Of a DNA stretch of 63,127 bases, positions 3,237 through 21,098 are shown piece by piece. A model generated the notes under the pieces. That model was not told the DNA's origin, did no database searches, and saw only the letters and a list, made by a program, of their open reading frames with translations. The position numbers and the translations under genes are program-made. This stretch comes from Bacilli bacterium (GTDB lineage Bacteria > Bacillota_I > Bacilli_A > RFN20 > CAG-826): positions 1 to 63,127 of the forward strand of contig JALRKT010000004.1 in assembly GCA_023268805.1 (NCBI GenBank). The letters are read 5' to 3'. The stretch's first letter is position 1, and each line of letters opens with the position of its first letter.

Positions 3237-3270
3237 CTTGAGTCACGTGATACGATGGATTCGAGGGATT

Positions 3271-3669
3271 ATGATGAATATTTTTTTCACCTTTCTATTG
3301 AGTGCACTTGTCTTCACGGTATTAGATTTATTTTGGCTCGTTAAAGTGGCTCCTCACCTTTATCGTCGCCATATTGGCCATCTCATGGCCGAAAAAGTTA
3401 ATCGAATCGGTGCGTTACTATTTTATGTTTTATACCATGTCGGACTTGTTGTATTTGTCCTTCTCCCTGCGCAAGGAAAACTTTTTGAAGGATGGTTATT
3501 GGGGAGTTTATTTGGACTCGTTACGTATGCAACCTATGATATAACAAACTTAGCGACGCTTAAAGCATGGCCGGTAAAAATTACGGTCATTGATTTGTTG
3601 TGGGGGACATTTTTGACGGGCGTTTCTACCGTGATTACGTTATGGCTCATGGGGGTTTTTGGTTTATGA
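3271..3669 (+). CDS. DUF2177-like small integral membrane protein
   Basis: About 132 aa with 4 TM helices. ATG at 3271 is preceded by GAGGG. The ORF-track TTG start at 3238 lies inside the upstream terminator, so I reject it. Confidence 0.6.
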   Translation: MMNIFFTFLLSALVFTVLDLFWLVKVAPHLYRRHIGHLMAEKVNRIGALLFYVLYHVGLVVFVLLPAQGKLFEGWLLGSLFGLVTYATYDITNLATLKAWPVKITVIDLLWGTFLTGVSTVITLWLMGVFGL

Positions 3670-4502
3670 TTGGTGTTTTAATTTTAACGGGACTTGTCAT
3701 CACCGTCAGTGTGATTCTCTTACATTTCACCATTTATTTTTTTAAAGCAGAAGCAAAAAATAATTATGGAATCATTGATATTGGTTGGGGACTTGGGTTT
3801 GTTTGGATTGCTTGGGCACTCATCCTTGTTCGGACCCAGCTTCTTGGCGTGAATAGTAATTTTCTTTCGTTAATCACCGTGCTCGTTACAACGATTTGGG
3901 GCGTGCGTTTATCTACCCATATTCGTCGTCGTAACGAAGGAAAACCAGAAGATTATCGTTACGTTGCGATGCGGGCAAAAATTCAACCTCCGTTGCGAAA
4001 ACTAAAAGGGTTTGTCAAAATTTTTCTTGTCCAAGCCCTCTTTATGTTTTTGATTGCCTGGGTCTTGATTGCCAATATTATGGTGTCGGGAAATGTGATT
4101 GAACCGTGGATGTATGGTCCACTTCTAGGGGGACTATTACTGTGGATGGTTGGCTTTTATTTTCAAGCGGTCGGCGACGCTCAATTAGCCCGTTTTAAAA
4201 AAAATCCAGTGAACAAAGGCAAACTCATGACCACCGGATTGTGGGCACTTACGCGGCACCCAAATTATGTCGGTGAAGTCTTTATGTGGTGGGGAATCAC
4301 CATCATGGGTTTTGGTAATGGATTTATCATTTCCATGCCTTGGTTGCCTTTCATCGCCATTTTTTCAGCACTTGTCGTCACATTTTTACTTCGGTATTTA
4401 TCCGGTGTTCCTTTATTAGAAAAAAGGATGGTTAACCATCCTGATTTTGCAGCCTATACGAAACGCACATCGATTTTCTTACCGTGGTTTCCTAAAAAAT
4501 AA
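3666..4502 (+). CDS. DUF1295 / steroid-5-alpha-reductase-like (ICMT-fold) membrane protein
   Basis: Polytopic, with the C-terminal 'LTRHPNYVGEVFMWWG' motif typical of DUF1295. ATG 3666 overlaps the upstream stop (ATGA). The longer ORF-track start at 3600 would overlap by 70 nt. Confidence 0.7.
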   Translation: MIGVLILTGLVITVSVILLHFTIYFFKAEAKNNYGIIDIGWGLGFVWIAWALILVRTQLLGVNSNFLSLITVLVTTIWGVRLSTHIRRRNEGKPEDYRYVAMRAKIQPPLRKLKGFVKIFLVQALFMFLIAWVLIANIMVSGNVIEPWMYGPLLGGLLLWMVGFYFQAVGDAQLARFKKNPVNKGKLMTTGLWALTRHPNYVGEVFMWWGITIMGFGNGFIISMPWLPFIAIFSALVVTFLLRYLSGVPLLEKRMVNHPDFAAYTKRTSIFLPWFPKK

Positions 4503-4503
4503 A

Positions 4504-4917
4504 TTAAAGCGGAATTGAAGAATTCAAAATAATGTGGGCGATGATAAGTCCCGTTATGATAAAGGGTAATATTTCGTGAATTTTATTCAAAACACGAATG
4601 TTGCCCTTTTTTTGTTCTTGTAAATAACCCGTAACACCTTGCGCGATTAATAAACCAATGAGGGTTCCTCCCGTTAAACTTGGGGAACCGGTGATCGAGA
4701 ATTGAAGGGCAGCATGGGCCAATGCGCTCAACAAGGCAAGGATGCCAAAGTAGCGATGGTTTTTTTGCAAAAATAATAAGATTTGTAAATCAAGCGACGT
4801 TTTCTTTTCCTTAAGCTTATTGCGCTTCACAACGGATGCTAACGTGAGCTGAACGAGTTTTCGTGTCATGCTCATCGCGATAAAAAAGACCGTAATAAAT
4901 CCTAATAATGGGCCCAT
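4504..4917 (-). CDS. Four-TM membrane protein with intramembrane His residues, unknown family
   Basis: 137 aa. 'HRYFGILALLSALAHAAL' and 'IIAHIIL' place His residues inside predicted helices. GGAGG lies upstream of the start. Confidence 0.55.
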   Translation of the reverse strand: MGPLLGFITVFFIAMSMTRKLVQLTLASVVKRNKLKEKKTSLDLQILLFLQKNHRYFGILALLSALAHAALQFSITGSPSLTGGTLIGLLIAQGVTGYLQEQKKGNIRVLNKIHEILPFIITGLIIAHIILNSSIPL

Positions 4918-4926
4918 ATTTCCTCC

Positions 4927-5562
4927 TTAATCACGGAATTGTTCCGGATCAATAATGTGCTTCTGATACCATTTTATCACGGTTTGGATTTCATCACTTG
5001 AGAGTTGATGTCCGTGTTTAAACCACGCTAATTCGACCGTTGCTTTTTGTGTTTGAAAACGGTGCACAAGTTGATTGGTTTGCGCTTGCGTGACAATAGG
5101 ATCTTCGGTGCCTGCCGTCACTAAAATATCTACATCCTCGATCGGTGTAGGGACGACCTTGGGATCGATATCCATCGGATGCATTAAGATTGCCTGGCGA
5201 AAACTCATCGGTTTTTTTAACATCATTTGGGCAATCATATTGGCGCCATTAGAATAACCAACACCGAGGAGATCCTGGCGATCCAGCTGATATTGTTCGC
5301 ACGCTTTATTCAAAAATGCATCGAGTGCATCGACACGCATGCGGATGTCGTCATAATCAAAGACACCTTCTGCTAAGCGTTTAAAAAAACGGTTCATCCC
5401 AAACTCGCTTACATCACCCCGCAATGCTAAAACACTCGCCTCATGATCAATCATCTGCGCAATGCTTAAAAGGTCGTTTTCATTTCCGCCTGTTCCGTGA
5501 AAAAGCACCAGTGTGGGTCGTCGCGGATTGGTCCCCGGAATATATTTATGAATCATAAGCAT
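4927..5562 (-). CDS. Phospholipase/carboxylesterase-family alpha/beta hydrolase (MhqD/YodD-like)
   Basis: 'LVLFHGTGGNENDL', the 'GYSNGAN' nucleophile elbow and a C-terminal 'HGH'. ATG 5562 has GAGG 6 nt upstream. The ORF-track GTG at 5574 is part of that SD. Confidence 0.75.
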   Translation of the reverse strand: MLMIHKYIPGTNPRRPTLVLFHGTGGNENDLLSIAQMIDHEASVLALRGDVSEFGMNRFFKRLAEGVFDYDDIRMRVDALDAFLNKACEQYQLDRQDLLGVGYSNGANMIAQMMLKKPMSFRQAILMHPMDIDPKVVPTPIEDVDILVTAGTEDPIVTQAQTNQLVHRFQTQKATVELAWFKHGHQLSSDEIQTVIKWYQKHIIDPEQFRD

Positions 5563-5630
5563 TTTTCGCCTCACTTTTTATCAACGGATTTATACTAATA
5601 TTACCAATTATGGTGAAAAAAGGAGATTTT

Positions 5631-6455
5631 ATGAGCGCAAAAGTTGAATTGTCGTTCGATCAAAAAGTAGACAAACTCCTTGGTTTTAACAAAACCATGG
5701 GTCTTGTTCACTTAATCCAAGGGGTTCTCATGATGGCGTTTGCCTTCTTTGTGTATCCCAATATTTCCGAACAAGGGGCCTTTAATATCGATGTCATCGG
5801 TAATTACCTTGAGTTCGTTCCAGGTGAAGGGTTAGTCTTAACCGTCACAGACACGTTATTTCAATTACCTTTCTTACCGTTAACTGCAAGTTTCTTGCTC
5901 TTATCGGCTTTATTCCACTTCCTTATCGCCTTCCCTTTCAAGAAGAAATATCGTGAAGGTTTACGTGTCGGTATCAACCAATTCCGTTGGTATGAATATG
6001 CGTTATCGTCCTCTTTAATGATTGTCTTAATTTCTTCCTTATTCGGTGTTCGCGATGTGGCCGTCTTTGCCTTAATCGCATTAGCGAATGCGGCGATGAA
6101 CTTCTTTGGTTTAGATATGGAATTACTCAACGCAGGCGAATCCAAAGTCGGTAAGAAAATCAACTGGTTACCCTTTATCTTCGGGACCGTCGTTGGTCTT
6201 GCTCCTTGGGTTGCCATTGCCTTCTACATTGGGGTGAACCCCAATTTAGATGCTGTTCCTGGTTTCGTTTGGGCGATTTTAGCCACCTACTTTATCGCTT
6301 TCAACACCTTCCCCGTCAACATGCTTCTTCAATACTTAGGCGTCGGTAAATTTAAAGACTATCTTGTCGGTGAACGTGGTTATATCATCTTATCGTTAGT
6401 TGCGAAAACCATCTTAACCTGGCTCGTCCTCTTCGGTGCCTTCCAACCTTCCTAA
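5631..6455 (+). CDS. Heliorhodopsin (7-TM retinal-binding protein)
   Basis: Motif-by-motif match to heliorhodopsin 48C12, recalled from memory: 'GLVHLIQ', 'LSALFHF', 'FRWYEYALSSSLMIVLI' (Glu counterion) and 'GERGYIILSLVAKT' (Schiff-base Lys). SD AAAGGAG lies at 5619-5625. Confidence 0.88.
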   Translation: MSAKVELSFDQKVDKLLGFNKTMGLVHLIQGVLMMAFAFFVYPNISEQGAFNIDVIGNYLEFVPGEGLVLTVTDTLFQLPFLPLTASFLLLSALFHFLIAFPFKKKYREGLRVGINQFRWYEYALSSSLMIVLISSLFGVRDVAVFALIALANAAMNFFGLDMELLNAGESKVGKKINWLPFIFGTVVGLAPWVAIAFYIGVNPNLDAVPGFVWAILATYFIAFNTFPVNMLLQYLGVGKFKDYLVGERGYIILSLVAKTILTWLVLFGAFQPS

Positions 6456-6484
6456 CGAATCCCGTTAAAATAAGGTAAAATAAA

Positions 6485-6511
6485 AGCTAAGGGAAACCCT
6501 TAGCTTTTTTT
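6485..6511 (+). terminator. Rho-independent terminator/attenuator after heliorhodopsin, abutting the next start codon
   Basis: AGCTAAGGG-AAA-CCCTTAGCT plus a T7 run. The last T is the base before ATG 6512. Confidence 0.75.
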
Positions 6512-7465
6512 ATGAATCATCCTCAAAAACCCGAAATATATCAAGGCTTCGGCCAAACCAATCGCTACTTTGAAGGCTGGTACTTTAAACATGTGACGGC
6601 GGATCAAACGTTCTCACTTGCGCTCATTCCTGGTATCTCGCTTTCTAAGAAAGATCCGCATGCCTTTGTCCAAGCATTTTTAGTCGATAACGGGGAAGAA
6701 CCACGGCTTGATTATCATTATTTTCGTTTTCCCACCTCGGATTTTTCTGCCGATAAGAAACGCTTTCACGTAAAAGTAGGAACCAATACATTCTCATTAG
6801 ATCAATCCCGTATTGATTTGAAAAATGACGATGTTCACTTGCGTGGTGACTTCCATTATCAAGGTCGTATTCCGCTTCCAAAAAACATTTTGAATCCTTC
6901 CATAATGGGACCGTTTGCCTATCTCCCAGCGATGGAATGTTACCATGGCGTACTTTCGCTAAATCATTCGATCACGGGATCGCTATCTGTGAATGATGAC
7001 GTGATTGAATTTACAAGCGGTAAGGGTTATTTAGAAAAGGATTGGGGGCGTTCATTCCCTGAAAATTATGTGTGGGTTCAAGCGAATCATTTCTCGGAAG
7101 ACAATATTTCTTTTTTCTTTTCTTATGCGAAGATTCCTTATTTAGGGTTAAAATTCCTTGGTGTTATTGGTCATCTTTATGTCGCAGGTCAACATTACCG
7201 ATTTGCAACGTATAATGGCGCCAAAGTCATCCAAGAAGTGATTACCCAACGTTCTGGTCACTATATTCTCAAGAAAGGTTCTTTGATGCTTGAATTTGAA
7301 GCGACGATTGATCGCGTTGCCTCCCTTAAATCACCAAAATTAGGGACGATGGACCATCAAATTAAAGAAGGATTATCCGGGCATGTTTCCTTACGATTAA
7401 CAAAAGGGAAACGCCTGCTATATCAAGGGGTCAGCAGCTCGGCTGGCATTGAGTTAATGCGATGA
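6512..7465 (+). CDS. Tocopherol-cyclase-family (VTE1-like) protein
   Basis: 'NRYFEGWYFKH' is near the N-terminus and 'GKGYLEKDWGRSFPENYVWVQANHF' is mid-protein. Both are hallmark tocopherol-cyclase motifs. Confidence 0.7.
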   Translation: MNHPQKPEIYQGFGQTNRYFEGWYFKHVTADQTFSLALIPGISLSKKDPHAFVQAFLVDNGEEPRLDYHYFRFPTSDFSADKKRFHVKVGTNTFSLDQSRIDLKNDDVHLRGDFHYQGRIPLPKNILNPSIMGPFAYLPAMECYHGVLSLNHSITGSLSVNDDVIEFTSGKGYLEKDWGRSFPENYVWVQANHFSEDNISFFFSYAKIPYLGLKFLGVIGHLYVAGQHYRFATYNGAKVIQEVITQRSGHYILKKGSLMLEFEATIDRVASLKSPKLGTMDHQIKEGLSGHVSLRLTKGKRLLYQGVSSSAGIELMR

Positions 7466-8403
7466 AAAAGAAAATAAAATGGGGGCGGATCATGGCCCTA
7501 ACGCTTTATGTTATCACGGTGGGATTTTGGACTGCTTCGGGGTTTAAAACCTCAGAAATCATACAAACCCGTCAATACGTTTACGAAGCGTATGCGAAAG
7601 AACTTCAACTTGATGAAGAGCGCACCATCTTTTATCGCGAAGCTGGGGATACCAATGCGCCTGTGATGCTCTTTATTCATGGATTTTTAGGATCAAGTTA
7701 TGATTTTATTCACGTTTTTGAGCATTTTAAATCCACCCATCATGTCATCGCGGTTGATTTAATAGGTTTTGGACTATCGAGTAAACCTCGTAATTATGAT
7801 TATGGTAAAGAAAATCAAGCGCGAACGGTGCTTGAATTTATCGAAGCCAAGCAATTAAACGATATTACCTTGATGGCCCATTCCATGGGAGGGGAGGTTT
7901 CCTTTCATCTTACCCACCTTGCTCCTGAAAAAATTTCCCAACTTATGTTGGTCGGGTCTGCAGGATACTATCCGGAAGGGGCAATGACCAATCCTCCTAG
8001 TTTACCTCTTTTCATGTACAAAGAAGTGGTTCAAAACTATTACATTCAACGAGCCTTCTTTTTTACCGCCTACTCAGAATACGAACGGAAAAATGGGCTT
8101 ATTACAAATGAAGATTTTGATGAAATGTATGTTGTCAATCGTACGATTCCCCCGGATATACTTAAACAATTTGGTGAGGATAATGATTCGCAAAATATGC
8201 AAGCGATATTCGATACAATCACGCAACCGATCCTGCTTCTTTGGGGTGAATTTGATGGATTTATTCCCCTTGCCACCGGGGAATTACTCCTACAAAGTTT
8301 GGGAGACAATGCCCATCTTGTCATGATGCCCAATGCGGGTCATCTTCCTTTTGATACCTTTTTTGAATTATTTATTGAACATGTGGAGGGATTTATCGCA
8401 TGA
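7462..8403 (+). CDS. Membrane-anchored alpha/beta hydrolase
   Basis: N-terminal TM helix, 'LFIHGFLGS', 'AHSMGG' nucleophile elbow and C-terminal 'NAGHLP'. ATGA overlap with the upstream gene. Confidence 0.8.
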   Translation: MKKKIKWGRIMALTLYVITVGFWTASGFKTSEIIQTRQYVYEAYAKELQLDEERTIFYREAGDTNAPVMLFIHGFLGSSYDFIHVFEHFKSTHHVIAVDLIGFGLSSKPRNYDYGKENQARTVLEFIEAKQLNDITLMAHSMGGEVSFHLTHLAPEKISQLMLVGSAGYYPEGAMTNPPSLPLFMYKEVVQNYYIQRAFFFTAYSEYERKNGLITNEDFDEMYVVNRTIPPDILKQFGEDNDSQNMQAIFDTITQPILLLWGEFDGFIPLATGELLLQSLGDNAHLVMMPNAGHLPFDTFFELFIEHVEGFIA

Positions 8404-8948
8404 AATATGTTTATCTTAAGCAAAAAGTATTCGCCATTCGGGATGAATACAAAGTGTATGATGAAGTTCAAAATGTCTTGTATGAGGCAAAAGGGAAATT
8501 CTTTTCGCTGCATAGTCATAAAGATATTTTTAAAGTCGATGATCCCACCCCCATTTATTCGATTCGACAAAAAGTTTTAACCTTTGTTCCTACGTATTTT
8601 TTATACGATCGTCAGAATGCCGTTGTCGCCAAGCTTGCCCAACAACTTCTTGCCTTTTTTGGGGTACGTTTTAACCTCTTAATTCAAGGGAAAAAATATG
8701 AAATTCAAGGCGATTTCTTTGGTTATAATTATCGAATTGCCGATGAAAATGGTACTGTGGTACAAATTCAAAAGAAGTTTTTAGCCTGGGGAGACACGTA
8801 TCAAGTGGCCATTGAAGATGGCTTTGATGAGGCCCTTGCCGTGAGTGTAGTGCTAATGATTGATGATTTTATTGATGATAAGCGTCGCCAAGCTGCTGCC
8901 GGTGGTATTGCCGCTTCATCTCATTCCTCAGGAGGTAGAAATCGATGA
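8400..8948 (+). CDS. LURP-one-related / DUF567 (YxjI-like, tubby/scramblase fold) protein
   Basis: 'LKQKVFAIRDEYKVYDE' and repeated beta-strand periodicity typical of DUF567. ATGA overlaps on both sides. Confidence 0.6.
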   Translation: MKYVYLKQKVFAIRDEYKVYDEVQNVLYEAKGKFFSLHSHKDIFKVDDPTPIYSIRQKVLTFVPTYFLYDRQNAVVAKLAQQLLAFFGVRFNLLIQGKKYEIQGDFFGYNYRIADENGTVVQIQKKFLAWGDTYQVAIEDGFDEALAVSVVLMIDDFIDDKRRQAAAGGIAASSHSSGGRNR

Positions 8949-10705
8949 AATTAATGCAACGTTGGTTGAATAACTTTTTATTAAAACCGTTGCAAGGAAG
9001 TTGGCAACGCTTCCCTGTCACATTAATTTATTCTTTTCTTTTAGGATTTTTGATGGTATTGAATGAAGACCTTGAACTAAACTGGTTGACCGATGTTTCT
9101 CAAGCCTTGTTCATTTTTCTTCCGTTAACGTTGAGTGTGACTCTCACAAGGGAAACGTTTGCGTGGTGGCGCTGGTCGAAGATCATCGATATTCTCACCG
9201 TAATCCTTCTCACCGGGCTTTATTTTGGTTGGTTGCAACTCGAAGCGAATCTTGCCGTGGGCTTCTTTCGCTTTTCAAATTTACTTTTTGGGTTTTATTT
9301 ATTGCCTTTATTTATCCGATATTTCCATGCGAATAAGGCGATCGAAAAACCCATCATTGATGGCATTAATGTTATTTTTACCGCGCTTGTTTATGCCTTA
9401 TTCCTCTTTGTCGGTGTCGCCATTATTTTATTGAGCACGAATATTTTGTTTAATTTATCGATTGCCTTTACCGTCTACTCGAATGTGCTTATCTTATCGC
9501 TTACGTATGTTTTTGTTCCCACATGGTTGAATGGCTTTCCTCGAGGAAACGAAAAAATCGAGGAAGGATCGTACTCCGTTATCTGGGAACGTATCTTCCT
9601 ATTTGTGCTTGCACCTGTCATCAGTGTCTTTATGATTTTTATCGTCATCTACTTGCTGACGGGTCTATTTCAAAGTGAACAATATAACGCGGGAATTTAT
9701 ACGTTATCAACCTTGGTGATTGCTTTTGCAGGGATTTCAACGCATGTCTCCACCCGTCGGTTTGTCGAACGTTATCCTTTAATAAAGCTTTTTCAAAACC
9801 TTTTCCCCATCGTTTTACTCGTGATTATGTTTGGGTATTATGTCGAACTCATTCGTGTGGGGATTGTCTTTGGATTTTCCATGGGTATCGTCCTCCAACT
9901 CATGATGGGAATATGGCCGATCAGTTACGCGATTTGGGTGCTCAAAAGACATCCTCAAGCCACCCAACGCGCCTTATTAACCCTTGTGGGCATTTATGTG
10001 TTCGCGGCCGTGATGCCTTTCGTCAATGGGGTTGGCATTGCCCGATTCATTTTACAAGGTCAATTTAACGCGGCGATTGAACGGCTCGATATGCTTGATG
10101 AAGAAGGGGAATTGATGGTCAAAAACGACCTTACACAAGAAGAATACAATCAACTTTTTTCGATTGTCACGTCCATGAATGAAATTGGCCTTGCTTCCTT
10201 TTCGGGCATTCCGGAATCGTATGAACACCCCTTTGATTTTCCCACGACCTTTGGGACGTATACCGATGACCCGGTCGTCGAATTTGTGGATTATTATTTT
10301 TCTTTATCGAATCAAATCTTAGATTTTTCTTCCTTTGACTATGAAACATTCTTATTTGTGCCTTCGATCATGGATCTTGTGGAAACACCTTACACCAGCG
10401 ACAACGTGACCATGTCACTGACCATGGAGGAAGAAACCGATTTACAACTTGATTGGAATATCACCTATGGTGATGAAGCCGTTACGATTGGTATTCTTGA
10501 GGAAATGATTGCCGTTTTGTTAGCGCGGCATTTCCCCGGTGAAGATATCCAACAAGCAGACTACACGGCAGTAAACCCTGAAGACTTACTCATTTCCTTC
10601 ACTTTTGAAACGTTTTCGATGGATATATGGGTGCAATCACTTATTTATTTTGATGGGTACTATCGTAATTTTGCAATGGGGGCCTATGTAGGTTTCTTCC
10701 GATGA
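8945..10705 (+). CDS. Large polytopic membrane protein (about 12 TM, possibly DUF4153-like) with a ~200-aa acidic C-terminal soluble domain
   Basis: 586 aa. Hydrophobic helices run through about residue 380, followed by an Asp/Glu-rich globular region. It is translationally coupled on both sides. Confidence 0.6.
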   Translation: MKLMQRWLNNFLLKPLQGSWQRFPVTLIYSFLLGFLMVLNEDLELNWLTDVSQALFIFLPLTLSVTLTRETFAWWRWSKIIDILTVILLTGLYFGWLQLEANLAVGFFRFSNLLFGFYLLPLFIRYFHANKAIEKPIIDGINVIFTALVYALFLFVGVAIILLSTNILFNLSIAFTVYSNVLILSLTYVFVPTWLNGFPRGNEKIEEGSYSVIWERIFLFVLAPVISVFMIFIVIYLLTGLFQSEQYNAGIYTLSTLVIAFAGISTHVSTRRFVERYPLIKLFQNLFPIVLLVIMFGYYVELIRVGIVFGFSMGIVLQLMMGIWPISYAIWVLKRHPQATQRALLTLVGIYVFAAVMPFVNGVGIARFILQGQFNAAIERLDMLDEEGELMVKNDLTQEEYNQLFSIVTSMNEIGLASFSGIPESYEHPFDFPTTFGTYTDDPVVEFVDYYFSLSNQILDFSSFDYETFLFVPSIMDLVETPYTSDNVTMSLTMEEETDLQLDWNITYGDEAVTIGILEEMIAVLLARHFPGEDIQQADYTAVNPEDLLISFTFETFSMDIWVQSLIYFDGYYRNFAMGAYVGFFR

Positions 10706-11703
10706 GTGGGTTGCTTTTTACCCCTTTTCAATGGGGTTCTCTTTCGCTTAAAAATCGCCTTGTCATGGCCCCGATGTGTATGTATAGTGCCAACGAAGAA
10801 GGACACGTACAACCGTTTCATCTCGCGCATTATCCTGCTCGTGCGTATGGCGGTGTGAGTTTAGTCATTGTTGAAGCCACCGCGGTTGAATCACGGGGTC
10901 GCATTTCGATTCACGATTTAGGTATTTATGATGATGCTCAACTAGCCGGATTACATCAACTTGTAAGTGCGGTTCATCATGGTGGCGCCAAAATTGCGAT
11001 TCAACTCGCTCACGCAGGAAAAAAATCAGGCGATATGTCCCAAGAAGCTATTTCTCCGTCTGCCATTCCGTTTACGCCTGAACACCGGATGCCCCGAGCG
11101 ATGACAAAAGAAGATATTCAAACCGTCATTCATCACTTCCGATTGGCTGCCCATCGTGCTCAACAAGCAGGATTTGATGGCGTTGAAATTCATGGGGCCC
11201 ATGGTTACCTCATTAATCAGTTTTTATCGCCATTAACGAATCATCGAACCGATGAATATGGTGGATCCATCGAAAATCGTACGCGTTTTTTAATTGAAAT
11301 TTTACAGGCAGTATCCACGGAATTTCATGGGGCCATTTGGGTCCGATTATCAGTAGAAGAATACGCCGAAGGCGGTCATCATGTGGAAGAAACCCTTCGC
11401 ATGTTGGATCTTATTAAACCTTACGTAGTTGGCGTTAATGTGAGTAGTGGGGGTGCAGTCCCTGTTTCTATTCAATCGTATCCGGGTTACCAACTTGGTT
11501 ATGCGAAAGCGATTGAAACGCAGGGTATTCCTACGATTGGGGGAGGCCTCGTCACCACCTACGAACAAATCGAAGATGCATTAGGTCAAGGCATATCGCT
11601 TATTTATCTAGGTCGAGAACTCTTGTTAAATCCTTACTTTTATTTACAGCTCGTTAAAAAGTATCATCCTCTCGACATGATTGCCCCGTACAAACGCGGA
11701 TAA
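10702..11703 (+). CDS. namA: NADPH dehydrogenase, Old Yellow Enzyme family (YqjM/NamA type)
   Basis: 'LKNRLVMAPMCMYS', 'IQLAHAGKK' and 'GVEIHGAHGYLINQFLSP' closely match B. subtilis YqjM. Confidence 0.88.
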   Translation: MSGLLFTPFQWGSLSLKNRLVMAPMCMYSANEEGHVQPFHLAHYPARAYGGVSLVIVEATAVESRGRISIHDLGIYDDAQLAGLHQLVSAVHHGGAKIAIQLAHAGKKSGDMSQEAISPSAIPFTPEHRMPRAMTKEDIQTVIHHFRLAAHRAQQAGFDGVEIHGAHGYLINQFLSPLTNHRTDEYGGSIENRTRFLIEILQAVSTEFHGAIWVRLSVEEYAEGGHHVEETLRMLDLIKPYVVGVNVSSGGAVPVSIQSYPGYQLGYAKAIETQGIPTIGGGLVTTYEQIEDALGQGISLIYLGRELLLNPYFYLQLVKKYHPLDMIAPYKRG

Positions 11704-11707: not shown

Positions 11708-11725
11708 AGCACCCTTTCGGGTGCT
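11708..11725 (-). terminator. Hairpin terminator for the minus-strand ABC operon
   Basis: AGCACCC-TTTC-GGGTGCT. The T-run lies only on the minus-strand side (GCTTTTC). Confidence 0.55.
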
Positions 11726-11867: not shown

Positions 11868-12683
11868 TTAAAATCCCCTTTCTGCGCTTGCACGCTTGAC
11901 AAAATAACGAATGGAAATAACTGCAAGGAAGATCATATAGACCGCGCCAATTACTAAATAAAGGGTATAGGAGAGATCATCAGGACCTTGGGTTTGAAAC
12001 GCGAGATTTAAAAAGGCTTTCACGGGCCAAAAGTTGGGGGTGATGCCTAACAAATATTGTTTCCAATCCCCAAAAGCTTCTAATAATACAAGGGCAGGAA
12101 TAATGAAGAGGATGCCTGCGGTTTTCATCAACGCAAACCCTTCAATTTTATTTTTAGCAATCGCTGCGATCATCGCCCCAATTGTCGGTGTGAGGAGACT
12201 ACTAACCGCACTAAAAAGCAGTAAATCAAGGAAAGAAATTTCTGATAGTCCAAACCGAATCCCGTTAAAGGAATACGAATACGCATCGGAAAAAAAGAGG
12301 ATGATGCCGCCCACCATGACCAGTGTTCCTAAAAAACCAATTACATAGGTGTAAAGACTCTTAAACCATGCATAGCCTTGAACGGTCATGGGTGAGACTG
12401 CAATCGCTTGAATCGTTTTCTCATCTTTGTTTTCTAAGAGTGAGAATCCGAGTAAAATACCCGAGATCATGCCACCGACGGCGAGAATAACCACAAAAAT
12501 AATTGTTAGACTTAATGCGTATTCCCCGGAAGATGTTTCTAGACCGGTTCGTTCTAAAATCGAAGGAATGGCCCATCCCATAAAAAACAACATAAAAACA
12601 GGATAAATGAACATAAATAAGTTCATAGGGTCACGTAAGAGTGTTTTGAGTTCATAGCCTAGTAAAGCAAACCAGGATTTCAT
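11868..12683 (-). CDS. ABC-2 type exporter permease
   Basis: 271 aa, 6 TM, overlaps the upstream permease by 4 nt. Confidence 0.75.
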   Translation of the reverse strand: MKSWFALLGYELKTLLRDPMNLFMFIYPVFMLFFMGWAIPSILERTGLETSSGEYALSLTIIFVVILAVGGMISGILLGFSLLENKDEKTIQAIAVSPMTVQGYAWFKSLYTYVIGFLGTLVMVGGIILFFSDAYSYSFNGIRFGLSEISFLDLLLFSAVSSLLTPTIGAMIAAIAKNKIEGFALMKTAGILFIIPALVLLEAFGDWKQYLLGITPNFWPVKAFLNLAFQTQGPDDLSYTLYLVIGAVYMIFLAVISIRYFVKRASAERGF

Positions 12684-13396
12684 GCGCGTAAAGCCTCCTT
12701 TTTAAAGCGGGGATAAACATAAAGTGGAAAAATAAGCCCAGGAATGGCGACTAAAAAGAACATAGCGAGAAGGATCATTGTGATATCACGGTCGATGAGT
12801 AACGACTGAATGATGTATTGAGCGGCGTAACTTGGGGATAAAAACCCAACCCATTGAAATGACTCAGGAATAAGGTCTAAGGGAATAAGAATAGCGGGTA
12901 AATAAAACAAAAGTGCGACGCCCATATATTTGACGAGTAAACTCATAAAATCCGGACTTAAAAACATTAAGATAAAGCCAACACTAATGTGCGCAATCGT
13001 TGCCAAGATAATGTAAGCAAGGGCGAGGAGTAAAGGAATCCAGTAACTATGAATGAGTCCCATCGTCAGACTGATGAGGGTGATGGAAACAAGGGAAGGC
13101 ACGAGACTAGCAAGTATTTTTGCAACGAGAACCTTCCTAGGTGAAACAGGACTCACAAACAACGCTTGAAGCGTGCCTTCTTGTTTTTCAAAATAATAAG
13201 ACGAACCGATGAGGACAATGGTCATTAATCCTGCATCAAGGGCGAGCAGCTGTGGCATGAGTAATTCAGCCTCTTGAAAGGAAGTAAACGCCAAGACAAA
13301 GACCCAAATCAACGAGACAAACAATCCAAAATAAATAATTTTATAATGGAATAAACGTAAGACTTCGGATTTAAGTAAAAGCAACAGTTTAAGCAT
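12680..13396 (-). CDS. ABC-2 type exporter permease
   Basis: 238 aa, 6 TM, overlaps the ATPase gene by 8 nt. Confidence 0.75.
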   Translation of the reverse strand: MLKLLLLLKSEVLRLFHYKIIYFGLFVSLIWVFVLAFTSFQEAELLMPQLLALDAGLMTIVLIGSSYYFEKQEGTLQALFVSPVSPRKVLVAKILASLVPSLVSITLISLTMGLIHSYWIPLLLALAYIILATIAHISVGFILMFLSPDFMSLLVKYMGVALLFYLPAILIPLDLIPESFQWVGFLSPSYAAQYIIQSLLIDRDITMILLAMFFLVAIPGLIFPLYVYPRFKKEALRA

Positions 13397-14258
13397 GATC
13401 TTCCCCCGTAATCAAAATAAAGATTTTATCTAAAGAGGTTTCTTGACTATGCATGGTCACGATACGGTCTTCTTGAATCAATTGTTGAAAGAAGGCATCA
13501 CTGGCAAGTTTCTCCATGGGGAAAACGTGTTGTTTTAATCCTTCTTTTTCTTGGTATTCTACTTTAATTTCTCGAACACCATATTTAAGTTTTAATGCTT
13601 TCGGATTGGAGGCTTCTAATAATTTCCCATTCGCGATAAACGCCACTTCATCACATAATTCTTCGACATCCCCCATTAAATGGGTTGTGATAATGATGGT
13701 TTTACCTTTGGCTTTCTCTTCTAAAATAATGTCTTTTAAAATGCGGGCGTTGGCCGGATCCAGTCCGTTGGTGGGTTCATCTAAAAAGAGAACATCGCCA
13801 TCGTTTAAAAGTGCTTTGACAAAATTAAGGCGCATTTTCATGCCTTTGGAATATTGACCCACCTGTTGATGCATCGCATTGCCCAGACCGACCCGAATCA
13901 TGAGTTTTTCAAAATCAATGTGACGTTGATACAACGACGCAAAAAACTTCATGTTTTCATAACCTGAAAGTTTGTTGAAGTGAACAGGCATTTCAAAACC
14001 GACACCGATGCGTTCGTAATAGGCTTGTCCCAATTCATTTAACGATTGCCCAAAAAATCGAACATCGCCTTGGTAATCATTGAGTAACTTGATAAGAATT
14101 TTTTGTGTCGTTGATTTTCCTGCTCCAGAAGGTCCTAATAACCCAAAGATGGAACCTTTTGGAATTTTTAAAGAAATGTCATGAAGGACATTCCCCCTTT
14201 TTGGGGAGTAAGCAAAACTTAACTGATTAATTTCAAAAGCGTATTCCATCTTAATCAC
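13389..14258 (-). CDS. ABC transporter ATP-binding protein
   Basis: Walker A 'GPSGAGKST', signature 'YSKGMKMRL' and Walker B 'VLFLDEPTNGLD'. Confidence 0.9.
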   Translation of the reverse strand: MIKMEYAFEINQLSFAYSPKRGNVLHDISLKIPKGSIFGLLGPSGAGKSTTQKILIKLLNDYQGDVRFFGQSLNELGQAYYERIGVGFEMPVHFNKLSGYENMKFFASLYQRHIDFEKLMIRVGLGNAMHQQVGQYSKGMKMRLNFVKALLNDGDVLFLDEPTNGLDPANARILKDIILEEKAKGKTIIITTHLMGDVEELCDEVAFIANGKLLEASNPKALKLKYGVREIKVEYQEKEGLKQHVFPMEKLASDAFFQQLIQEDRIVTMHSQETSLDKIFILITGEDHA

Positions 14259-14781
14259 CCTCCTTTAGGGAAATATGTTTGATGTATTCAAAAGCTTTAC
14301 GGAATTCTTGGAAAATGGTGGGAGCATCTGCCCCATCCAATAATCGTTGCCGATATCCTAAGGCCATCACGTAAAACCATTGATAAATAAATTGAGGATC
14401 GACATCGTCTTTAAAGAGAGTTAAATCTTTTTCGGTAAAGGGATAAGGGGGGAGTTCTGGCGCTTTTTCTAAGTCGATGAGAATGAATTCGAAAAGATGT
14501 GGTGTCGCAAGTTCAAGTTTATATTTTGCGATTTGGAGGTCATACAGTTTCTCAAAGAAATGCCCTTGATTTTGATGGAACGTGTCTTGAAGATGTTGAA
14601 TGAGAGAAAGTGCATACGTTCGCGTCGCTTCATACAATGCCGCTTTGGTTTTAAAATGATGAAATAATAGCGGTTTGCTCACTCCAGCATGACGAGCAAT
14701 ATCGGCGATACTTGCCTTCTTTTTTCCCAACGTTGAAAAGATTTCAATCGCGGATTTCATGATGGAAAGTTTTGCGGACAT
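14251..14781 (-). CDS. TetR/AcrR-family transcriptional regulator (probably on a leaderless mRNA)
   Basis: The HTH 'SIADIARHAGVSKPLLFHHFKTK' lies close to the N-terminus if translation starts at ATG 14781. A consensus promoter ends 6 nt upstream of that ATG. The 44-codon ORF-track extension is rejected. Confidence 0.85.
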   Translation of the reverse strand: MSAKLSIMKSAIEIFSTLGKKKASIADIARHAGVSKPLLFHHFKTKAALYEATRTYALSLIQHLQDTFHQNQGHFFEKLYDLQIAKYKLELATPHLFEFILIDLEKAPELPPYPFTEKDLTLFKDDVDPQFIYQWFYVMALGYRQRLLDGADAPTIFQEFRKAFEYIKHISLKEGD

Positions 14782-14787
14782 AACCCT

Positions 14788-14816
14788 ATTATAAAGCGAC
14801 TGACCGATTCGGTCAA
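14788..14816 (-). promoter_or_regulatory. Consensus sigma-A promoter of the TetR/ABC operon
   Basis: On the minus strand: TTGACC (14816-14811), 17-nt spacer, TATAAT (14793-14788). The A of the ATG lies 7 nt after the -10 box. Confidence 0.7.
14801..14815. promoter_or_regulatory. Perfect 15-bp palindrome TGACCGA-T-TCGGTCA, candidate TetR operator
   Basis: Seven-bp arms that are exact reverse complements. It overlaps the -35 box and spacer of the TetR promoter and lies upstream of the divergent VTC gene. Confidence 0.7.
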
Positions 14817-14853
14817 TATGTTCATTTACATTCTTTTTTGCTACACTACAAGT

Positions 14854-15588
14854 ATGGCTGAAACCAACGTCTTTAAGCGGTACGAGAAAAAATTTGTCAT
14901 TACCCGTCATCAATTCGAAGGGCTTTTACAAACCATTCGTCGACACATGAAATATGACCCTTATTGTCTGGAAGGAAATACGTATCATCTTCGTAATGTT
15001 TATTACGACACAATTGATCATCAACTTATCTCTATCTCCTTGTTAAAACCTGATTTCAAGGAAAAATTACGGATTCGTAAGTATGGGGTTCAAGGGGATG
15101 GGACGAACTTAGTTTTTCTTGAAGTGAAACGAAAAATTCAAGGTGTTGTGACCAAACGTCGCGCTTCCATGAGTTTGACTGAAATCGATCAATTTATGCT
15201 GAAAGGTGAAATTCCGAGTCGAACGGATTATTATTCACAACAAATTTTAAAAGAACTTCATTATATGACTCATGTATATGAACTCAAAAAAGCGGTCTTC
15301 ATTGAATATGATCGTTTAGCATTTTTTGATAAAAAAGATGAAGAATTCAGAGTGACTTTTGATCAAAACATTTATACTAGATATGACAATTTTGATTTTG
15401 AAAGCCCAGATCGCGGTGTTTCTTTACTCAAAGAGGATCAAGTATTAATGGAAGTCAAAGTGGGGGACGCGATGCCTCTATGGTTTGCAAAAGCACTAAG
15501 TCGCCACAACATCTATCTTCATTCGTTTTCTAAGTATGGAAAAGCGTATGAACTTGAATTAGCAAAGGAGATTCGCAACGATGTTTGA
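14854..15588 (+). CDS. VTC-domain (CYTH-like, polyphosphate-polymerase-domain) protein
   Basis: 'FKRYEKKFVI', 'YYDT', 'KLRIRKY' and 'VFLEVKRK' match the bacterial VTC domain pattern. I take the start at MAETN. The ATG at 14818 is an alternative. Confidence 0.7.
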   Translation: MAETNVFKRYEKKFVITRHQFEGLLQTIRRHMKYDPYCLEGNTYHLRNVYYDTIDHQLISISLLKPDFKEKLRIRKYGVQGDGTNLVFLEVKRKIQGVVTKRRASMSLTEIDQFMLKGEIPSRTDYYSQQILKELHYMTHVYELKKAVFIEYDRLAFFDKKDEEFRVTFDQNIYTRYDNFDFESPDRGVSLLKEDQVLMEVKVGDAMPLWFAKALSRHNIYLHSFSKYGKAYELELAKEIRNDV

Positions 15589-17145: not shown

Positions 17146-18103
17146 TAAAGCGCCAAAATTCAAAGAATTTCGCGTGAAAAAAGCAGGAATTCTCATGGAT
17201 TTTTTACGGGAATCACTTCCCAAAATGAGTCGAAATAATATCAAGTCATTACTTCGGCATAAGCAAGTTGCCGTTGAAGGGGTCCGTGTATCACGCTTTG
17301 ATTTTCCCTTGGCCGCGAATGACATGGTCATTGTCTTTTCCGAACGAAAGGTCGAATTGAAAGTATCACGACCTAAAATTATTTATGAAGATGATGAATT
17401 CTTGGTGATTGATAAGCCAAGTGGCCTATTAAGTATTGCCTCGGATAAAGAAAAAACAAAAACCGCCATCAAAGTGATGATGGAATATGTTCAAGACAAA
17501 AATCCGAATGCTCGCCTCTATGTGACCCACCGTATTGACCGCGATACCTCGGGGATTCTACTTTTCTCGAAACGGGAAGATCTTCGAAATATCCTTCAAG
17601 ATCGATGGAACGAACTGGTGACCAAACGCGGCTATTTTGCCATTGTTGAAGGGGTTCCCAAAGAAAAGAAGAAAACCATTAAATCATGGTTACGTCAGAC
17701 GACCACTCAACTCATGTATTCTCACTATGAAGAAGATGATGAAGGCCAAGAAGCGATTACACATTATGAAGTTAAACAAACTTCCGGCAATCATGCGTTA
17801 TTAGACGTACTGATTGATACTGGAAGAAAAAATCAAATTCGAGTTCATCTTAATGATTTGGGACACCCGATTATTGGTGATAAAAAATACCATAGTGAAA
17901 CCGATCCGTTAAAGCGATTAGGCCTTCACGCGTATGCCTTAGAATTCCATCATCCGATCACGCAAAAAAAGCTTAAATTCTATGCCCCTATTCCGAAATT
18001 ATTTCATCAGTTCATGAGTCAAACAAATACGCCATCCCCTCAGGACAAACCTAGAAAAAAACCTTATAATAAAAACCATGGAACTCGTCGAGCTAAGCGG
18101 TAA
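17114..18103 (+). CDS. RluA-family pseudouridine synthase with an S4 domain and a basic C-terminal tail
   Basis: Catalytic 'HRIDRDTSGILLF' and 'GRKNQIRVH'. An alternative start is ATG 17195. Confidence 0.85.
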   Translation: MQNSNPPSRNNKAPKFKEFRVKKAGILMDFLRESLPKMSRNNIKSLLRHKQVAVEGVRVSRFDFPLAANDMVIVFSERKVELKVSRPKIIYEDDEFLVIDKPSGLLSIASDKEKTKTAIKVMMEYVQDKNPNARLYVTHRIDRDTSGILLFSKREDLRNILQDRWNELVTKRGYFAIVEGVPKEKKKTIKSWLRQTTTQLMYSHYEEDDEGQEAITHYEVKQTSGNHALLDVLIDTGRKNQIRVHLNDLGHPIIGDKKYHSETDPLKRLGLHAYALEFHHPITQKKLKFYAPIPKLFHQFMSQTNTPSPQDKPRKKPYNKNHGTRRAKR

Positions 18104-21098
18104 ATTTCAACGAAGGTGGTTACGGCATACACGCCGACTTACTATCCAATGGAATCAGCCTGATTCCTTTTTGCGTTATGTTTTCTTCCTCGCTTTTATG
18201 GGCGTAATGTTCTTTGCGTATGCACTAGTTACCAATTTATTTACCATTCCATTAAGTGGGGATTATGTGTTACAGCAAATCCCGTTTTATTTGAATGGGT
18301 ATGATGATTGGTGGCATTTTTTTCGCACGGGTGAATTCGTTTTATGGGATTCATCGACCTACCTTGGTGCGAACCATATCGGTTCTAATTCTTTTTATTA
18401 TTATTTAAATCCATTCTTTCTACCTATTTTGCTTTTCCCACGAGCATTAGTCCCTCAAGGGATGGCCATCTTGATGATCGGCAAAATGGTTTTAGCCTCA
18501 TTAACGTTTCGCATTTATTTAAAATATCAAGGTGTTTCTGAAACCAATAGTCGTTTATTCTCTATGGCCTATGGATTTTCGGGTTGGATGGTCTATTACC
18601 TTTGGTTTAATCACTTCATGGAAGTTGCGGTGGTGTTTCCCCTTGTTTTACTTGGGATTGAAACTCTCTTAAAAGAAAAGAAGATTATCCTTTTAGCCTC
18701 CAGTCTGTTTTTGATGGGCATTACGAATTATTTCTTCCTTGTATCGACGAGTTTTACGGCGTTCTTCTACGCCGTCTTTCGTTATTTTCAAACGTTACCC
18801 CGTCGTTCATGGCAAGATTCATTGAAGATAATTGGACTTGGTTTTGTTGGCTTTTTGAGTGGACTGTTGATGTCAGGATTTGTCTTTTTACCTTCTGTTT
18901 TGGTTGCCGTCACGTCCGACCGTGTAGGTGGAGCGTGGTATCTTGATCGACTTATTGCCACCTGGACAGCAGAAGATTGGGAACAATTTTGGCGATTATT
19001 AACCGTCTGGCAAAATGCGTCTTTGACAGAAGAACCGTACAATAAGTTTTATCCCCTTGTTTCGTTTTTATTTCCAACAGTGAGCAATCGATCTTCGACC
19101 TTATTCCGTACGTCGAGTTACGATAATACGATTTCTAGTCTATTCATGTATACACCCTTGACGAAGCTCGTTGTTCCTTCGTAGCTACACTCCATCAAAC
19201 AAAAGAAAGATTCGCATTTCATCGCCTTGGGTATATTGCTATTTATGTTATTTACGCCGATTACCTATCAATTAGTTCATGGCTTTACCATTGACTACGG
19301 CCGTTGGCAAATCTTTGTCGTCACCATTGCCATTGCTTATGTCGCTTTACAATTTGAACATCGCCATGCGTTTAAGGTGTGGTATTTTGATGTCTCATTT
19401 GCGGTGATTTTTGGATTAGCGTTTTATGCCTTAGCCGTCGCTCAAGCCAATGAAAATCAGTATTTCTTTACGGCGTTAGAAGAACGCGAATGGGTGGCAA
19501 TTGGAACCCTTCTTTACATGATTGGTGTTTATTTATATTTCCGAAAACAGTATATGTCCAAAACGTTGACGGAAATCATGAAAAATGCCATTTTTTTTGA
19601 ATCGATTATTATGGGTGCTTTGATTATGAATATCCATGGATTAGTAAGCTATCCCAACCGAATTGACAATGGCCTTACCCTCATCCGTGATCAGCGGGAT
19701 GTGATTACTTCCATTAATCGTGAAGATGACGATTTATTCCGTATTTTCAATTTGAATAGTGGCGAATCAACGAATCTTGGGATGCGTCTAGGCTATAACG
19801 GGGTGACCGCTTTCCACTCCCTTTACAATTTCCATGTCAGTGATTTTAATGCCTGGTCGCACATGAATTACAACTATCGAGGATGGTCAATGGGATATCA
19901 TGAAAAACGTTATAACCTTGATACGTTTTTAGGCATCAAATATTACCTGATGCAAAATGTTTATGATTCGTATACGCGGTCGGCTGAACCAAATCCAGAC
20001 ACAGGCTATTATGATTATTTGTATCAAAATGTTCCACATGGTTTTACCAAAAATTATGAATTATCAACCGAATTAAATTCCGTTTATGAAAATCAAAACT
20101 TTATCGAAGGAGGGTTTAGTTTTGATACCCTCATTCGCACGAATAAAATCGAAGGGGCATCGATTTATGATTTTTTTGCGAACACCACTACGGAAGTTCT
20201 TACCAACGAAGAGGCGTATCTTACTGGGGGTATTCTTGATAATGAGGATGTTTTAAGCGTTCTAGAACAAGCACCTCATCTCCAAGTTCAAGATATACCG
20301 AATCGTAATATCGCACGCGTTTTTGCGAATGTTGAGTTTGTCACATGTCCTACGATTTTTAATCCGAATCTATTAAATGATTTAGAAGCTTGTGAAACCG
20401 CCTTGATCCCTCCTAATTCCACACTCAGTAATTTCCAAGGCGAATTTAAAACCATTCATTTAACACCGACAACAGGCAACCATTTTGCAGAGGAAACCTC
20501 CTTTTTTGCCTTACAACTTCGACTTTCTCATTTTTCCACCGTTTATTTCTTTGATGAGAATAACGAGATTATCGTTCGGGATGCCCATAGTTTTGTCAAT
20601 ACATCATTCAAGTTTATGCGCGGTTATTACCCCGATCGCCCGGTGAGCCGGATAGTGATCGTTCCTAAGTTTTCTTCAGGAACGATGTTTTATCCGGTTT
20701 TATACCGAGAAGCGTATTCTGATTATCTTGAACGCCTCAATTTATTAAATGCATATCCTTTAGAACGATTTACGCATACAAAAAACACCATGGAATTTGA
20801 AACGAATTATGATCAATCACGATTTATCGTCTTGCAAACTCCGTATGATCCGGGTTGGAATGTCACCTATTGGAACGATCAAGGTCAATCGTTTACTACA
20901 CCTGTGTACCGTGCACAAGGTGGCTTTATCGGGTTTGTTTCAGGAGAAGGATTTACACGTTATCGCGTTCATTATTGGACCCCGTACTTAACAGAAGGCT
21001 TATTACTCTCGTTATCGGGAGCTGTTTTATTGGGTGGTGTCACTGGCGCAGCGTGGTATATTCAACGAAAAAAAGACGACGTTAGTTCCGGTGCATAA
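18078..21098 (+). pseudogene. YfhO-family (GT-C fold) membrane glycosyltransferase interrupted by one in-frame TAG at 19182-19184
   Basis: ORFs 18078-19184 and 19227-21098 are in the same frame. The 14 codons between them contain no other stop. Together they give a ~1000-aa YfhO architecture: 'GDYVLQQIPFY', many TM helices, a large extracytoplasmic domain and a terminal TM helix. Confidence 0.65.

Follow-up and report, generated by a model that had tools for sequence, protein, structure and literature searches.

According to Bulzu et al., heliorhodopsins (HeRs) are sensors for photo-oxidative stress, and in three published cases a HeR regulates the product of an adjacent gene: glutamine synthetase for AbHeR (PMC9529153), a photolyase for TfHeR (PMC9769723) and the ABC transporter OmrDE (PMC11109279). 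Chazan et al. (2021) reported an enrichment of oxidative-stress families, DUF2177 and DUF1295 around HeR, and listed tocopherol cyclase among the neighbours of the oxidative-stress type. Their supplementary legend calls tocopherol cyclase "typical" for a mollicute, together with DUF2177, DegV and DUF1295, and their Dataset S3 records a tocopherol-cyclase neighbour of HeR in 1 of 876 Actinobacteria and 2 of 175 Chloroflexi. Here we analyse a 63,127-nucleotide stretch of DNA (the whole of which we call the window) from a freshwater, Acholeplasma-related member of the Bacilli, in which a HeR gene is followed, across a terminator hairpin, by a gene of the tocopherol-cyclase family (PF14249; hereafter VTE1-like) and four further genes.

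The adjacency of HeR and PF14249 genes is already recorded in passing by Chazan et al., and the window resembles the neighbourhoods of their survey in that HeR adjoins a PF14249 gene, as it does there in an Acholeplasmataceae genome, and DUF2177 and DUF1295 genes are also present. DegV differs in being absent: a Pfam scan of the window's open reading frames (ORFs) of at least 150 amino acids found neither DegV nor retinal genes. The survey only lists the family, whereas the locus described here adds the terminator, a HeR-independent link to crtB and crtI, a reversed gene order in Acholeplasma laidlawii and the five-gene extension. With the published HeR–effector pairs the locus shares an enzyme encoded next to HeR in the same orientation, a candidate sensor-plus-effector layout in a monoderm; it differs in that the partner is an uncharacterised VTE1-like protein and that a covarying terminator lies between the two genes. 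The VTE1-like protein has in common with plant and cyanobacterial VTE1 (slr1737) its membership of PF14249 and a predicted beta-barrel that fits acid-catalysed ring closure on a prenyl chain, but its host is a non-photosynthetic heterotroph in which no other tocopherol-pathway gene was found, and its neighbours in sister lineages are carotenoid and photolyase genes. In the literature, we found no paper on HeR in Acholeplasma and none on the function of non-cyanobacterial tocopherol-cyclase homologues.

Comparison with related loci points firmly to HeR, the intrinsic-terminator hairpin and the VTE1-like gene as the ancestral conserved unit, with the four genes behind the VTE1-like gene evidently a clade-specific extension of the pair in this freshwater lineage only. 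We tentatively read the region, at a probability of about 40%, as the distal part of a HeR 'light island' in which the VTE1-like enzyme would modify a carotenoid or prenyl lipid as part of the response to light or photo-oxidative stress.

We scanned a collection holding one genome per species with an alignment of VTE1-like proteins and found carriers in at least 594 genome stretches, which include Bacillota, Acholeplasmataceae, Izemoplasmatales, Bacteroidota, Spirochaetes, Desulfobacteria and several methanogens. With so many and such varied carriers, a VTE1 homologue in a heterotroph is ordinary. An earlier reading of this DNA (the sequence-only reading) had recognised no pathway in a tocopherol-cyclase homologue of a monoderm heterotroph paired with an ene-reductase and membrane proteins; the homologue as such is not unusual, and most carriers have no HeR nearby.

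Neighbourhoods were compared by tblastn with the window proteins for the best 80 of these loci, at species level (L-numbers denote the compared relative loci). HeR lies within 6 kb of the VTE1-like gene in 14 of the 80 and is not nearby in the other 66, and it is by far the commonest specific neighbour (12 loci; the runner-up among specific clusters has 5). It stands directly upstream on the same strand in L005, L007, L008, L010, L013, L016 and L033, appears in part where a contig ends in L006 and is divergent from the VTE1-like gene in a Methanobacterium (L050). Genes on the opposite strand usually set the pair apart on both sides, and these flanks differ by lineage. In the cultured species Peloplasma aerotolerans, a photolyase gene runs divergently from HeR–VTE1-like. 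In A. laidlawii (LS483439.1, L172:9001-10876), the order is reversed, with the VTE1-like gene followed by HeR after a 91-nt AT-rich gap; this pair lies downstream of dnaX-ybaB-recR, and crt genes are not adjacent. L176 has the two genes in convergent orientation at a distance of 3.9 kb, with a DUF1722 gene upstream, and Acholeplasma granularum has the VTE1-like gene without HeR nearby. A neighbour-joining tree places the HeR-linked VTE1-like genes in at least four positions.

Two of these loci deserve a separate remark. In L011, HeR is split into two overlapping ORFs (4048-4846; a frameshift or pseudogene) beside a crt operon, and the VTE1-like gene lies 5 kb from it, past an inserted block with a response regulator. 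In A. granularum (L175:1829-3665), the VTE1-like gene is followed after 32 nt by another alpha/beta-hydrolase, of the BD-FAE/Peptidase_S9 type, and then by ribBA, an arrangement that may represent a recurrent pairing of VTE1-like protein and esterase.

We also scanned metagenomes with a Methanobacterium-type HeR as seed, which yielded 80 archaeal-type loci (57–92% identical). None of the 80 has a VTE1-like gene within 5 kb, and on this result we rejected the idea that the link is general across HeRs or across domains; the Methanobacterium locus is an isolated case. Because of this result and the counts of Chazan et al. for Actinobacteria and Chloroflexi, the link appears to be specific to Acholeplasma-like Bacilli, where the gene comparisons indicate that it is pervasive. 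The sequence-only reading had proposed gene neighbourhoods as the test of a link to HeR, and the outcome is divided: the VTE1-like gene is common without HeR, yet strongly enriched beside it in Acholeplasma-like lineages.

The 56 nt between the HeR stop (6455) and the VTE1-like start codon contain a hairpin with a 12-bp stem (5 GC pairs, −15.9 kcal/mol) followed directly by a U-run, the form of an intrinsic terminator (Table 1). A hairpin and T-run are present in all 16 HeR-first same-strand gaps that were read in sequence (gap 43–56 nt). When the 13 distinct gap sequences are aligned, compensatory changes on both sides are seen in 7 of 9 stem pairs, and 97.4% of cells pair; none of 500 shuffles reached this level of pairing, and slid registers collapse. 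This pattern indicates that the hairpin is an RNA structure under selection. We considered a palindromic operator for a protein and ruled it out, because the arms covary rather than conserve their sequence and the T-run always follows. Like the intercistronic terminators of operons with unequal expression, the element is a covarying hairpin plus U-tract between co-oriented genes that leaves no room for a full downstream promoter; it differs from them in the possible nested promoter of sister lineages and, in the window clade, in a U-tract that touches the start codon and the loss of the Shine–Dalgarno sequence (SD). In lineages other than the window clade, the T-run and the ATG are separated by an SD (AGGAG or GGTGA); the window clade lacks this spacer and has lost the SD before the VTE1-like gene.

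In several sister lineages, an extended −10 motif, with a background frequency of 8e-5 per nt, ends at most 3 nt from the 5' arm of the HeR terminator. A transcript initiated some 7 nt beyond this motif would have its 5' end inside the stem and would therefore escape termination, so that motif and hairpin together would be a putative promoter nested in a terminator, giving the downstream gene its own start. The weak −10-like hexamer at the foot of the window hairpin may be a remnant of such a nested promoter. Because only this hexamer is left, read-through is the likelier route in the window clade, and it is plausible that the VTE1-like gene is expressed there by read-through rather than from a weak independent start. 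The dependence on read-through that had been proposed earlier is thus plausible for this clade, but need not extend to sister lineages, where the extended −10 may let transcription start independently. By either route, we predict that the downstream enzymes are made in far smaller amounts than HeR.

The VTE1-like protein matches the PF14249 Tocopherol_cycl profile at E = 7e-20 (71.8 bits against a cut-off of 26.6), with the best stretch covering residues 130–315 only. PF14249 is the sole Pfam family at E ≤ 0.01, with no CrtC/Lipocalin_9 match; no NCBIfam model matched, and a sequence search of the PDB with the VTE1-like profile matched no solved structure. Its AlphaFold2 (AF2) model (pLDDT, the per-residue confidence score, of 91) is almost all beta-strand. 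Foldseek comparison of the model with the PDB gave matches at E = 6e-10 to 5e-7, with template-modelling scores (TM) of 0.5–0.6 and 9–14% identity. They comprise the decalin-forming Diels–Alderases Fsa2, Phm7 and CghA (E = 6e-10, TM 0.6), kievitone hydratase (7a0q and 7a0t), a CrtC-family prenyl hydratase (E = 2e-8, TM 0.49–0.50), and a 25-phosphosteroid lyase. These enzymes all work without a cofactor and wrap around a long hydrophobic chain, be it polyene, prenyl or steroid. On the AF2 model, the protein thus shares a fold with the CrtC/AttH-type isoprenoid hydratases. The likeness to these hydratases (7a0q) and to the Diels–Alderases lies in the double beta-barrel fold (E = 6e-10 to 2e-8) and in cofactor-free action on prenyl or polyene chains; they differ in showing no sequence-family match and only 9–14% identity, and the likeness is one of fold.

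In L008, L010, L033 and L085–L091, an operon divergent from HeR/VTE1-like encodes a crtI-family desaturase, an SQS_PSY protein (crtB), a DUF92 protein, a CTP-transferase-like membrane protein and a class II photolyase. The desaturase scores 449 bits against a cut-off of 238, with CrtID and CrtD as its nearest equivalogs; the CTP-transferase-like protein matches CTP_transf_1 below threshold (E = 9e-4). A photolyase gene is also adjacent in L007, L018 and L174, and cryptochrome-DASH, DPRP photolyase-related genes and a riboflavin (rib) operon lie downstream in sister islands. No recognisable lycopene cyclase or blh was found in the sister islands examined. In L009 and L017, the VTE1-like gene lies 100 nt from crtI and there is no HeR. 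By these gene arrangements, the tie of the VTE1-like gene to carotenoid genes is no weaker than its tie to HeR. The link to light and photo-oxidative stress put forward in the sequence-only reading fits this context, in which DUF2177 and DUF1295 lie upstream and, in sister lineages, photolyases, crtB/crtI and a rib operon surround the pair.

Outside the mollicutes, a search for a common neighbour of the VTE1-like gene ended in its rejection, as the adjoining genes are unrelated (IDO, DUF190, pterin dehydratase, CobU, Gfo/Idh/MocA, M48 protease, MarR). The sole recurring non-mollicute neighbour is a gene for a SOUL heme-binding protein, 19–27 nt upstream of the VTE1-like gene in two Izemoplasmatales (L020:1474-1989 and L030:769-1299); SOUL is another family reported near HeRs.

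In the window, the VTE1-like gene begins a translationally coupled unit of five genes behind the HeR terminator. The others encode an alpha/beta hydrolase (ABH), a LURP-one-related protein (LOR), a 586-residue orphan membrane protein (MEM586) and an Old Yellow Enzyme (OYE). All four junctions between 6512 and 11703 are ATGA overlaps of stop and start, the genes lie on one strand, and a terminator scan of that strand found no canonical terminator (a long GC-rich stem with a clean T-run) inside the unit; it returned two short 5-bp stem matches (9351-9363 and 10720-10737), a regional total at chance level. Anti-SD duplex energies (kcal/mol) are −8.9 for HeR, −9.8 for LOR and −11.6 for MEM586; VTE1-like (−3.3), ABH (−2.2) and OYE (−3.1) have no SD. 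A search of the whole window against Rfam returned one tRNA only, with no riboswitch or known RNA near the module.

The sequence-level statements of the sequence-only reading on the five ATGA-joined ORFs all hold, including the first ATG that lacks an SD and directly follows the T7 tail, and Pfam and NCBIfam bear out its family labels, with no family for the 586-residue protein. Its single operon stands on the ATGA coupling, but the stoichiometric translation it drew from the overlaps does not, as two of the junctions have a strong SD of their own and two have none. The five genes, which it had treated as one HeR-linked module, separate in comparison: the HeR/VTE1-like pair is conserved, but only this clade has ABH, LOR, MEM586 and OYE behind it.

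Table 1. Positions of the genes and signals discussed (window coordinates unless a locus number is given)
Feature	Position	Strand	Remarks
DUF2177 membrane protein	3238-3669	+	PF09945 2.5e-39; with DUF1295, the upstream edge of the conserved HeR island
DUF1295 (steroid-reductase/ICMT-like) membrane protein	3600-4502	+	PF06966 3.8e-57
Small cytochrome-b561-like membrane protein	4504-4917	-	PF01292 4e-6, below cut-off; kept only in the window clade
MhqD-like carboxylesterase (dienelactone-hydrolase fold)	4927-5574	-	NF047577 MhqD 2.6e-51, 174 bits vs equivalog cut-off 325; PF01738
Heliorhodopsin (HeR)	5631-6455	+	PF18761, NF038020; ORF opens at 5610, SD-supported start 5631
TAAAAT, weak -10-like hexamer at hairpin foot	6476-6481	+	no TG extension, no -35; not reported by the promoter scan
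Intrinsic-terminator hairpin	6482-6511	+	stem 6482-6493/6497-6508, loop AAA, T7 (6505-6511) abutting ATG 6512
VTE1-like (tocopherol-cyclase family), soluble beta-barrel enzyme	6512-7465	+	PF14249; SD-less start
ABH, alpha/beta hydrolase with putative N-terminal membrane anchor	7462-8403	+	PF00561; translationally coupled, without own SD
LOR, LURP-one-related	8400-8948	+	PF04525; own strong SD
MEM586, clade-restricted orphan: polytopic membrane domain + C-terminal alpha/beta domain	8945-10705	+	own strong SD
OYE, YqjM/NamA-like Old Yellow Enzyme ene-reductase	10702-11703	+	PF00724; translationally coupled
GC-rich hairpin closing the five-gene unit	11708-11725	not assigned	common with the convergent TetR/ABC-2 exporter operon
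Extended -10, TGgTATAAT	L005:9951-9959
Extended -10, TGaTATAAT	L033:9936-9944; L085:8834-8842
Extended -10, TGnTATACT	L089:8833-8841; L090:3254-3262

Among the 80 species-level loci, the whole block of DUF1295, b561-like, MhqD-like, HeR, VTE1-like, ABH, LOR, MEM586 and OYE genes is found only in L001–L004, the window clade. Close relatives of the HeR add the freshwater contigs L081–L084, which carry the same five-gene block; marine and other lineages (L085–L091) have a different island around the same HeR/VTE1-like pair. The layout of HeR, hairpin and five genes, including the T7 abutting the ATG, recurs in eight related loci (L001–L004 and L081–L084) and is therefore no assembly accident. The ATGA overlaps are kept in L001–L004 and L082–L084, where the last junction is 8 nt. 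In L081, LOR is missing or degraded (only a 32-residue ORF is called, 10792-11495) and the rest of the module is intact.

HeR itself is complete and matches both family models well (PF18761, 2e-82 and 276.6 bits against a cut-off of 26.7; NF038020, 253.4 bits against 100). The SD duplex favours a start at 5631 (−8.9 kcal/mol) over 5610 (+2.8). The lysine of SLVAK and the glutamate of RWYEY are both present, in columns that are invariant in our alignment A3; we take them to be the retinal Schiff-base lysine of transmembrane segment 7 and the counter-ion of transmembrane segment 3, as in HeR 48C12.

The four added genes are a mixed set. ABH, of the lipase/esterase type, matches Abhydrolase_1 (PF00561, 1.5e-30) and has a hydrophobic N-terminus (IMALTLYVITVGFWTASGF) and the GxSxG motif HSMGG. 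Its solved relatives include 6i8w (E = 8e-20) and 4opm (E = 5e-20), presumably both transmembrane-anchored phospholipase A1 enzymes of the PlaF type (6i8w being PlaF); the match to 6i8w spans residues 49–172 only, and many unrelated hydrolases score alike. LOR, a Tubby-like protein, matches PF04525 at 7.7e-14, and a sequence search found no solved relative. MEM586 has no Pfam or NCBIfam match; it has about 12 predicted helices and a C-terminal alpha/beta domain in an AF2 model of moderate confidence (pLDDT 75), which has no Foldseek match in the PDB at E ≤ 0.001. Its homologues form 19 clusters among 5.8 billion proteins (35–98% identical), and it evolves fast, with 35–62% identity as against 86–95% for HeR. 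OYE matches Oxidored_FMN above cut-off (PF00724, 1.3e-76, 258.6 bits); its best NCBIfam model is NamA (NF010047), at 392 bits against an equivalog cut-off of 431, and its PDB matches include 3gr7 (7.5e-89) and YqjM, 1z41 (8e-83). By their family names, these four genes, together with the MhqD-like esterase, DUF1295 and DUF2177, would fit the handling of damaged membrane lipids and reactive carbonyls.

Upstream of HeR, the DUF2177–DUF1295 pair is present in L081–L091. From its listed GTG start, DUF1295 would share 70 nt with DUF2177, and its orthologues (259–277 residues) start 1–4 nt after DUF2177; the true start is therefore probably near 3670. The b561-like and MhqD-like genes (4504-5574, minus strand) fill the slot between DUF1295 and HeR that holds crtI-crtB-photolyase in sister clades, which, on gene order, looks like a block replacement.

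Beyond the module, a TetR regulator and a three-gene ABC-2 exporter (11868-14913, minus strand) converge on it and share the closing hairpin; in L082–L084, this operon is absent and VTC-DUF4956 directly follows OYE. A YfhO-family membrane protein is encoded in two ORFs within 18078-21098, the first (18078-19184) covering positions 2–243 of the profile and the second (19227-21098) positions 315–835; a frameshift, a pseudogene or a gene that is truly split could account for this. The stretch 35233-45121 encodes UvrB, glutamine synthetase, a Y-family DNA polymerase and a sigma factor of the extracytoplasmic-function (ECF) type, downstream of which lies a 412-residue gene that belongs to no known family. 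Glutamine synthetase, a known HeR partner in Actinobacteria, sits 34 kb away in the window.

On the light-island reading, the VTE1-like enzyme would be a cofactor-free beta-barrel acting on a long isoprenoid or polyene lipid, in which protonation of a C=C bond would lead to ring closure or to addition of an oxygen nucleophile, a chemistry known from VTE1 and the CrtC-type hydratases. The most likely substrate would be a carotenoid or related prenyl lipid such as the crtB/crtI operon of sister lineages would supply, a tocopherol precursor being unlikely. The island would serve the response to light and photo-oxidative damage, with HeR as the light sensor; by analogy with glutamine synthetase and photolyase elsewhere, HeR may also bind the VTE1-like protein. 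The four added genes might clear oxidised membrane lipids, or mend them, and might also reduce reactive enals. With a terminator and an SD-less start ahead of them, and with ABH dependent on coupling, the enzymes would be kept to a small fraction of the amount of HeR.

Several observations weigh against this reading. The Pfam scan of window ORFs of at least 150 residues found no crt, photolyase or blh family, and tblastn of the sister crt, photolyase, DUF92 and CTP-transferase-like proteins against the window gave no match; with no crt genes in the window, the carotenoid source therefore rests on the sister lineages and not on this organism. The crt and photolyase genes may lie close by because they share light regulation with the pair, not because they belong to one pathway, and a fold match at TM 0.5–0.6 and 9–14% identity says nothing about substrate. 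VTE1-like genes are common in strict anaerobes and methanogens not known for carotenoids, where their neighbours are heterogeneous, and the general substrate of the family may be something other than a carotenoid. Much of the conservation of the pair is confined to a single broad lineage and may in part be synteny passed on by descent, and the archaeal-type HeRs have no VTE1-like gene nearby (0 of 80).

The same evidence can be read in other ways. HeR might bind the VTE1-like protein, and possibly the membrane proteins of the module, and alter its activity in light. The three published cases in which the HeR partner is encoded next to it would speak for such direct photoregulation, as would the tight adjacency of the pair, which persists despite varied flanks and orders. 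This idea is compatible with the light-island reading, and we consider it unlikely: the terminator and the SD-less start imply very unequal amounts of the two proteins, the VTE1-like gene seems to have its own promoter in sister lineages, and close relatives carry it without HeR. We regard as unlikely, too, that the enzyme supplies HeR with its chromophore or antenna, by making the end group (a beta-ionone-type ring or a hydroxylated one) of the crtB/crtI carotenoid, which would then be a precursor of HeR retinal or a carotenoid docked in the fenestration of the protein. Such a role would provide the missing step in organisms without blh and lycopene cyclase. The sister islands hold crtB and crtI with no recognisable lycopene cyclase or blh, and the VTE1-like protein is the sole uncharacterised soluble enzyme always present in them; VTE1 itself closes a ring after protonating a C=C bond, a chemistry that fits the fold, and the adjacency is held in both gene orders. 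According to Chazan et al., blh is rare in HeR genomes, and a retinal pathway of unknown kind has been postulated (Chazan et al.; PMC7734400). A carotenoid-binding fenestration, predicted for 91% of HeRs in a 2025 preprint, would suit this role, but the proposal is docking-based and assumes carotenoids acquired from outside. Nor would chromophore supply explain why the VTE1-like gene stays beside crt after HeR loss (L009 and L017), has no HeR nearby in 66 of 80 loci and is missing near the archaeal-type HeRs; the islands contain no cleavage enzyme, and the window has no crt genes. We are doubtful of the further claim that the VTE1-like proteins are a new class of cofactor-free carotenoid end-group enzymes (cyclase or 1,2-hydratase) that make the carotenoid needed by HeR, as retinal precursor or antenna, in Acholeplasma-like monoderms.

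Synthesis of a chromanol or tocopherol-type antioxidant, close to the prenylquinone/chromanol-type antioxidant or lipid-repair function that the sequence-only reading had suggested, fares worst and is very unlikely. It would have the VTE1-like enzyme cyclise a prenylquinol, with the DUF92 and CTP-transferase-like proteins of the sister operon acting like VTE6 and VTE5 in the activation of phytol or geranylgeraniol. PF14249 membership, the oxidative-stress context and the presence of DUF92 and a weak CTP_transf_1 match in the neighbouring operon would agree with this, plant VTE6 and VTE5 being presumably members of the DUF92 and CTP_transf_1 families, respectively. Against it, neither the window ORFs of at least 150 residues scanned against Pfam nor the related islands examined contained a UbiA-type prenyltransferase, HPPD, or an MPBQ or gamma-tocopherol methyltransferase; the CTP_transf_1 match is below threshold, the hosts are non-photosynthetic, many carriers are quinone-poor anaerobes, and the recurrent metabolic neighbour elsewhere is carotenoid synthesis. 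There may, finally, be no functional link at all, with the pair an inherited synteny, the five-gene unit an accidental fusion and the hairpin a mere HeR terminator. The association is essentially confined to Acholeplasma-like Bacilli (as the Actinobacteria and Chloroflexi counts of Chazan et al. also suggest), most VTE1-like genes are not near HeR, and the added genes are clade-specific and fast-evolving, as the divergence of MEM586 relative to HeR illustrates. We nevertheless think this explanation improbable, because the adjacency has outlived inversion of the gene order, changes on both flanks and an insertion, because a methanogen has paired the two genes divergently and independently, because HeR is the top specific neighbour among the 80 loci, and because the four overlaps are kept across the clade.

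The light-island reading touches on two open questions, the function of HeRs and the source of their chromophore in organisms without blh. The five-gene extension is of local interest only, as a clade-specific set for handling lipids and electrophiles. If the VTE1-like protein were indeed such a carotenoid end-group enzyme, it would make good the lack of blh and lycopene cyclase in HeR-bearing genomes. A conserved partner gene next to HeR in two cultured species, A. laidlawii and P. aerotolerans, would make one candidate answer directly testable, and gives functional work on the tocopherol-cyclase family a first entry into its large uncharacterised branch in bacteria and archaea.

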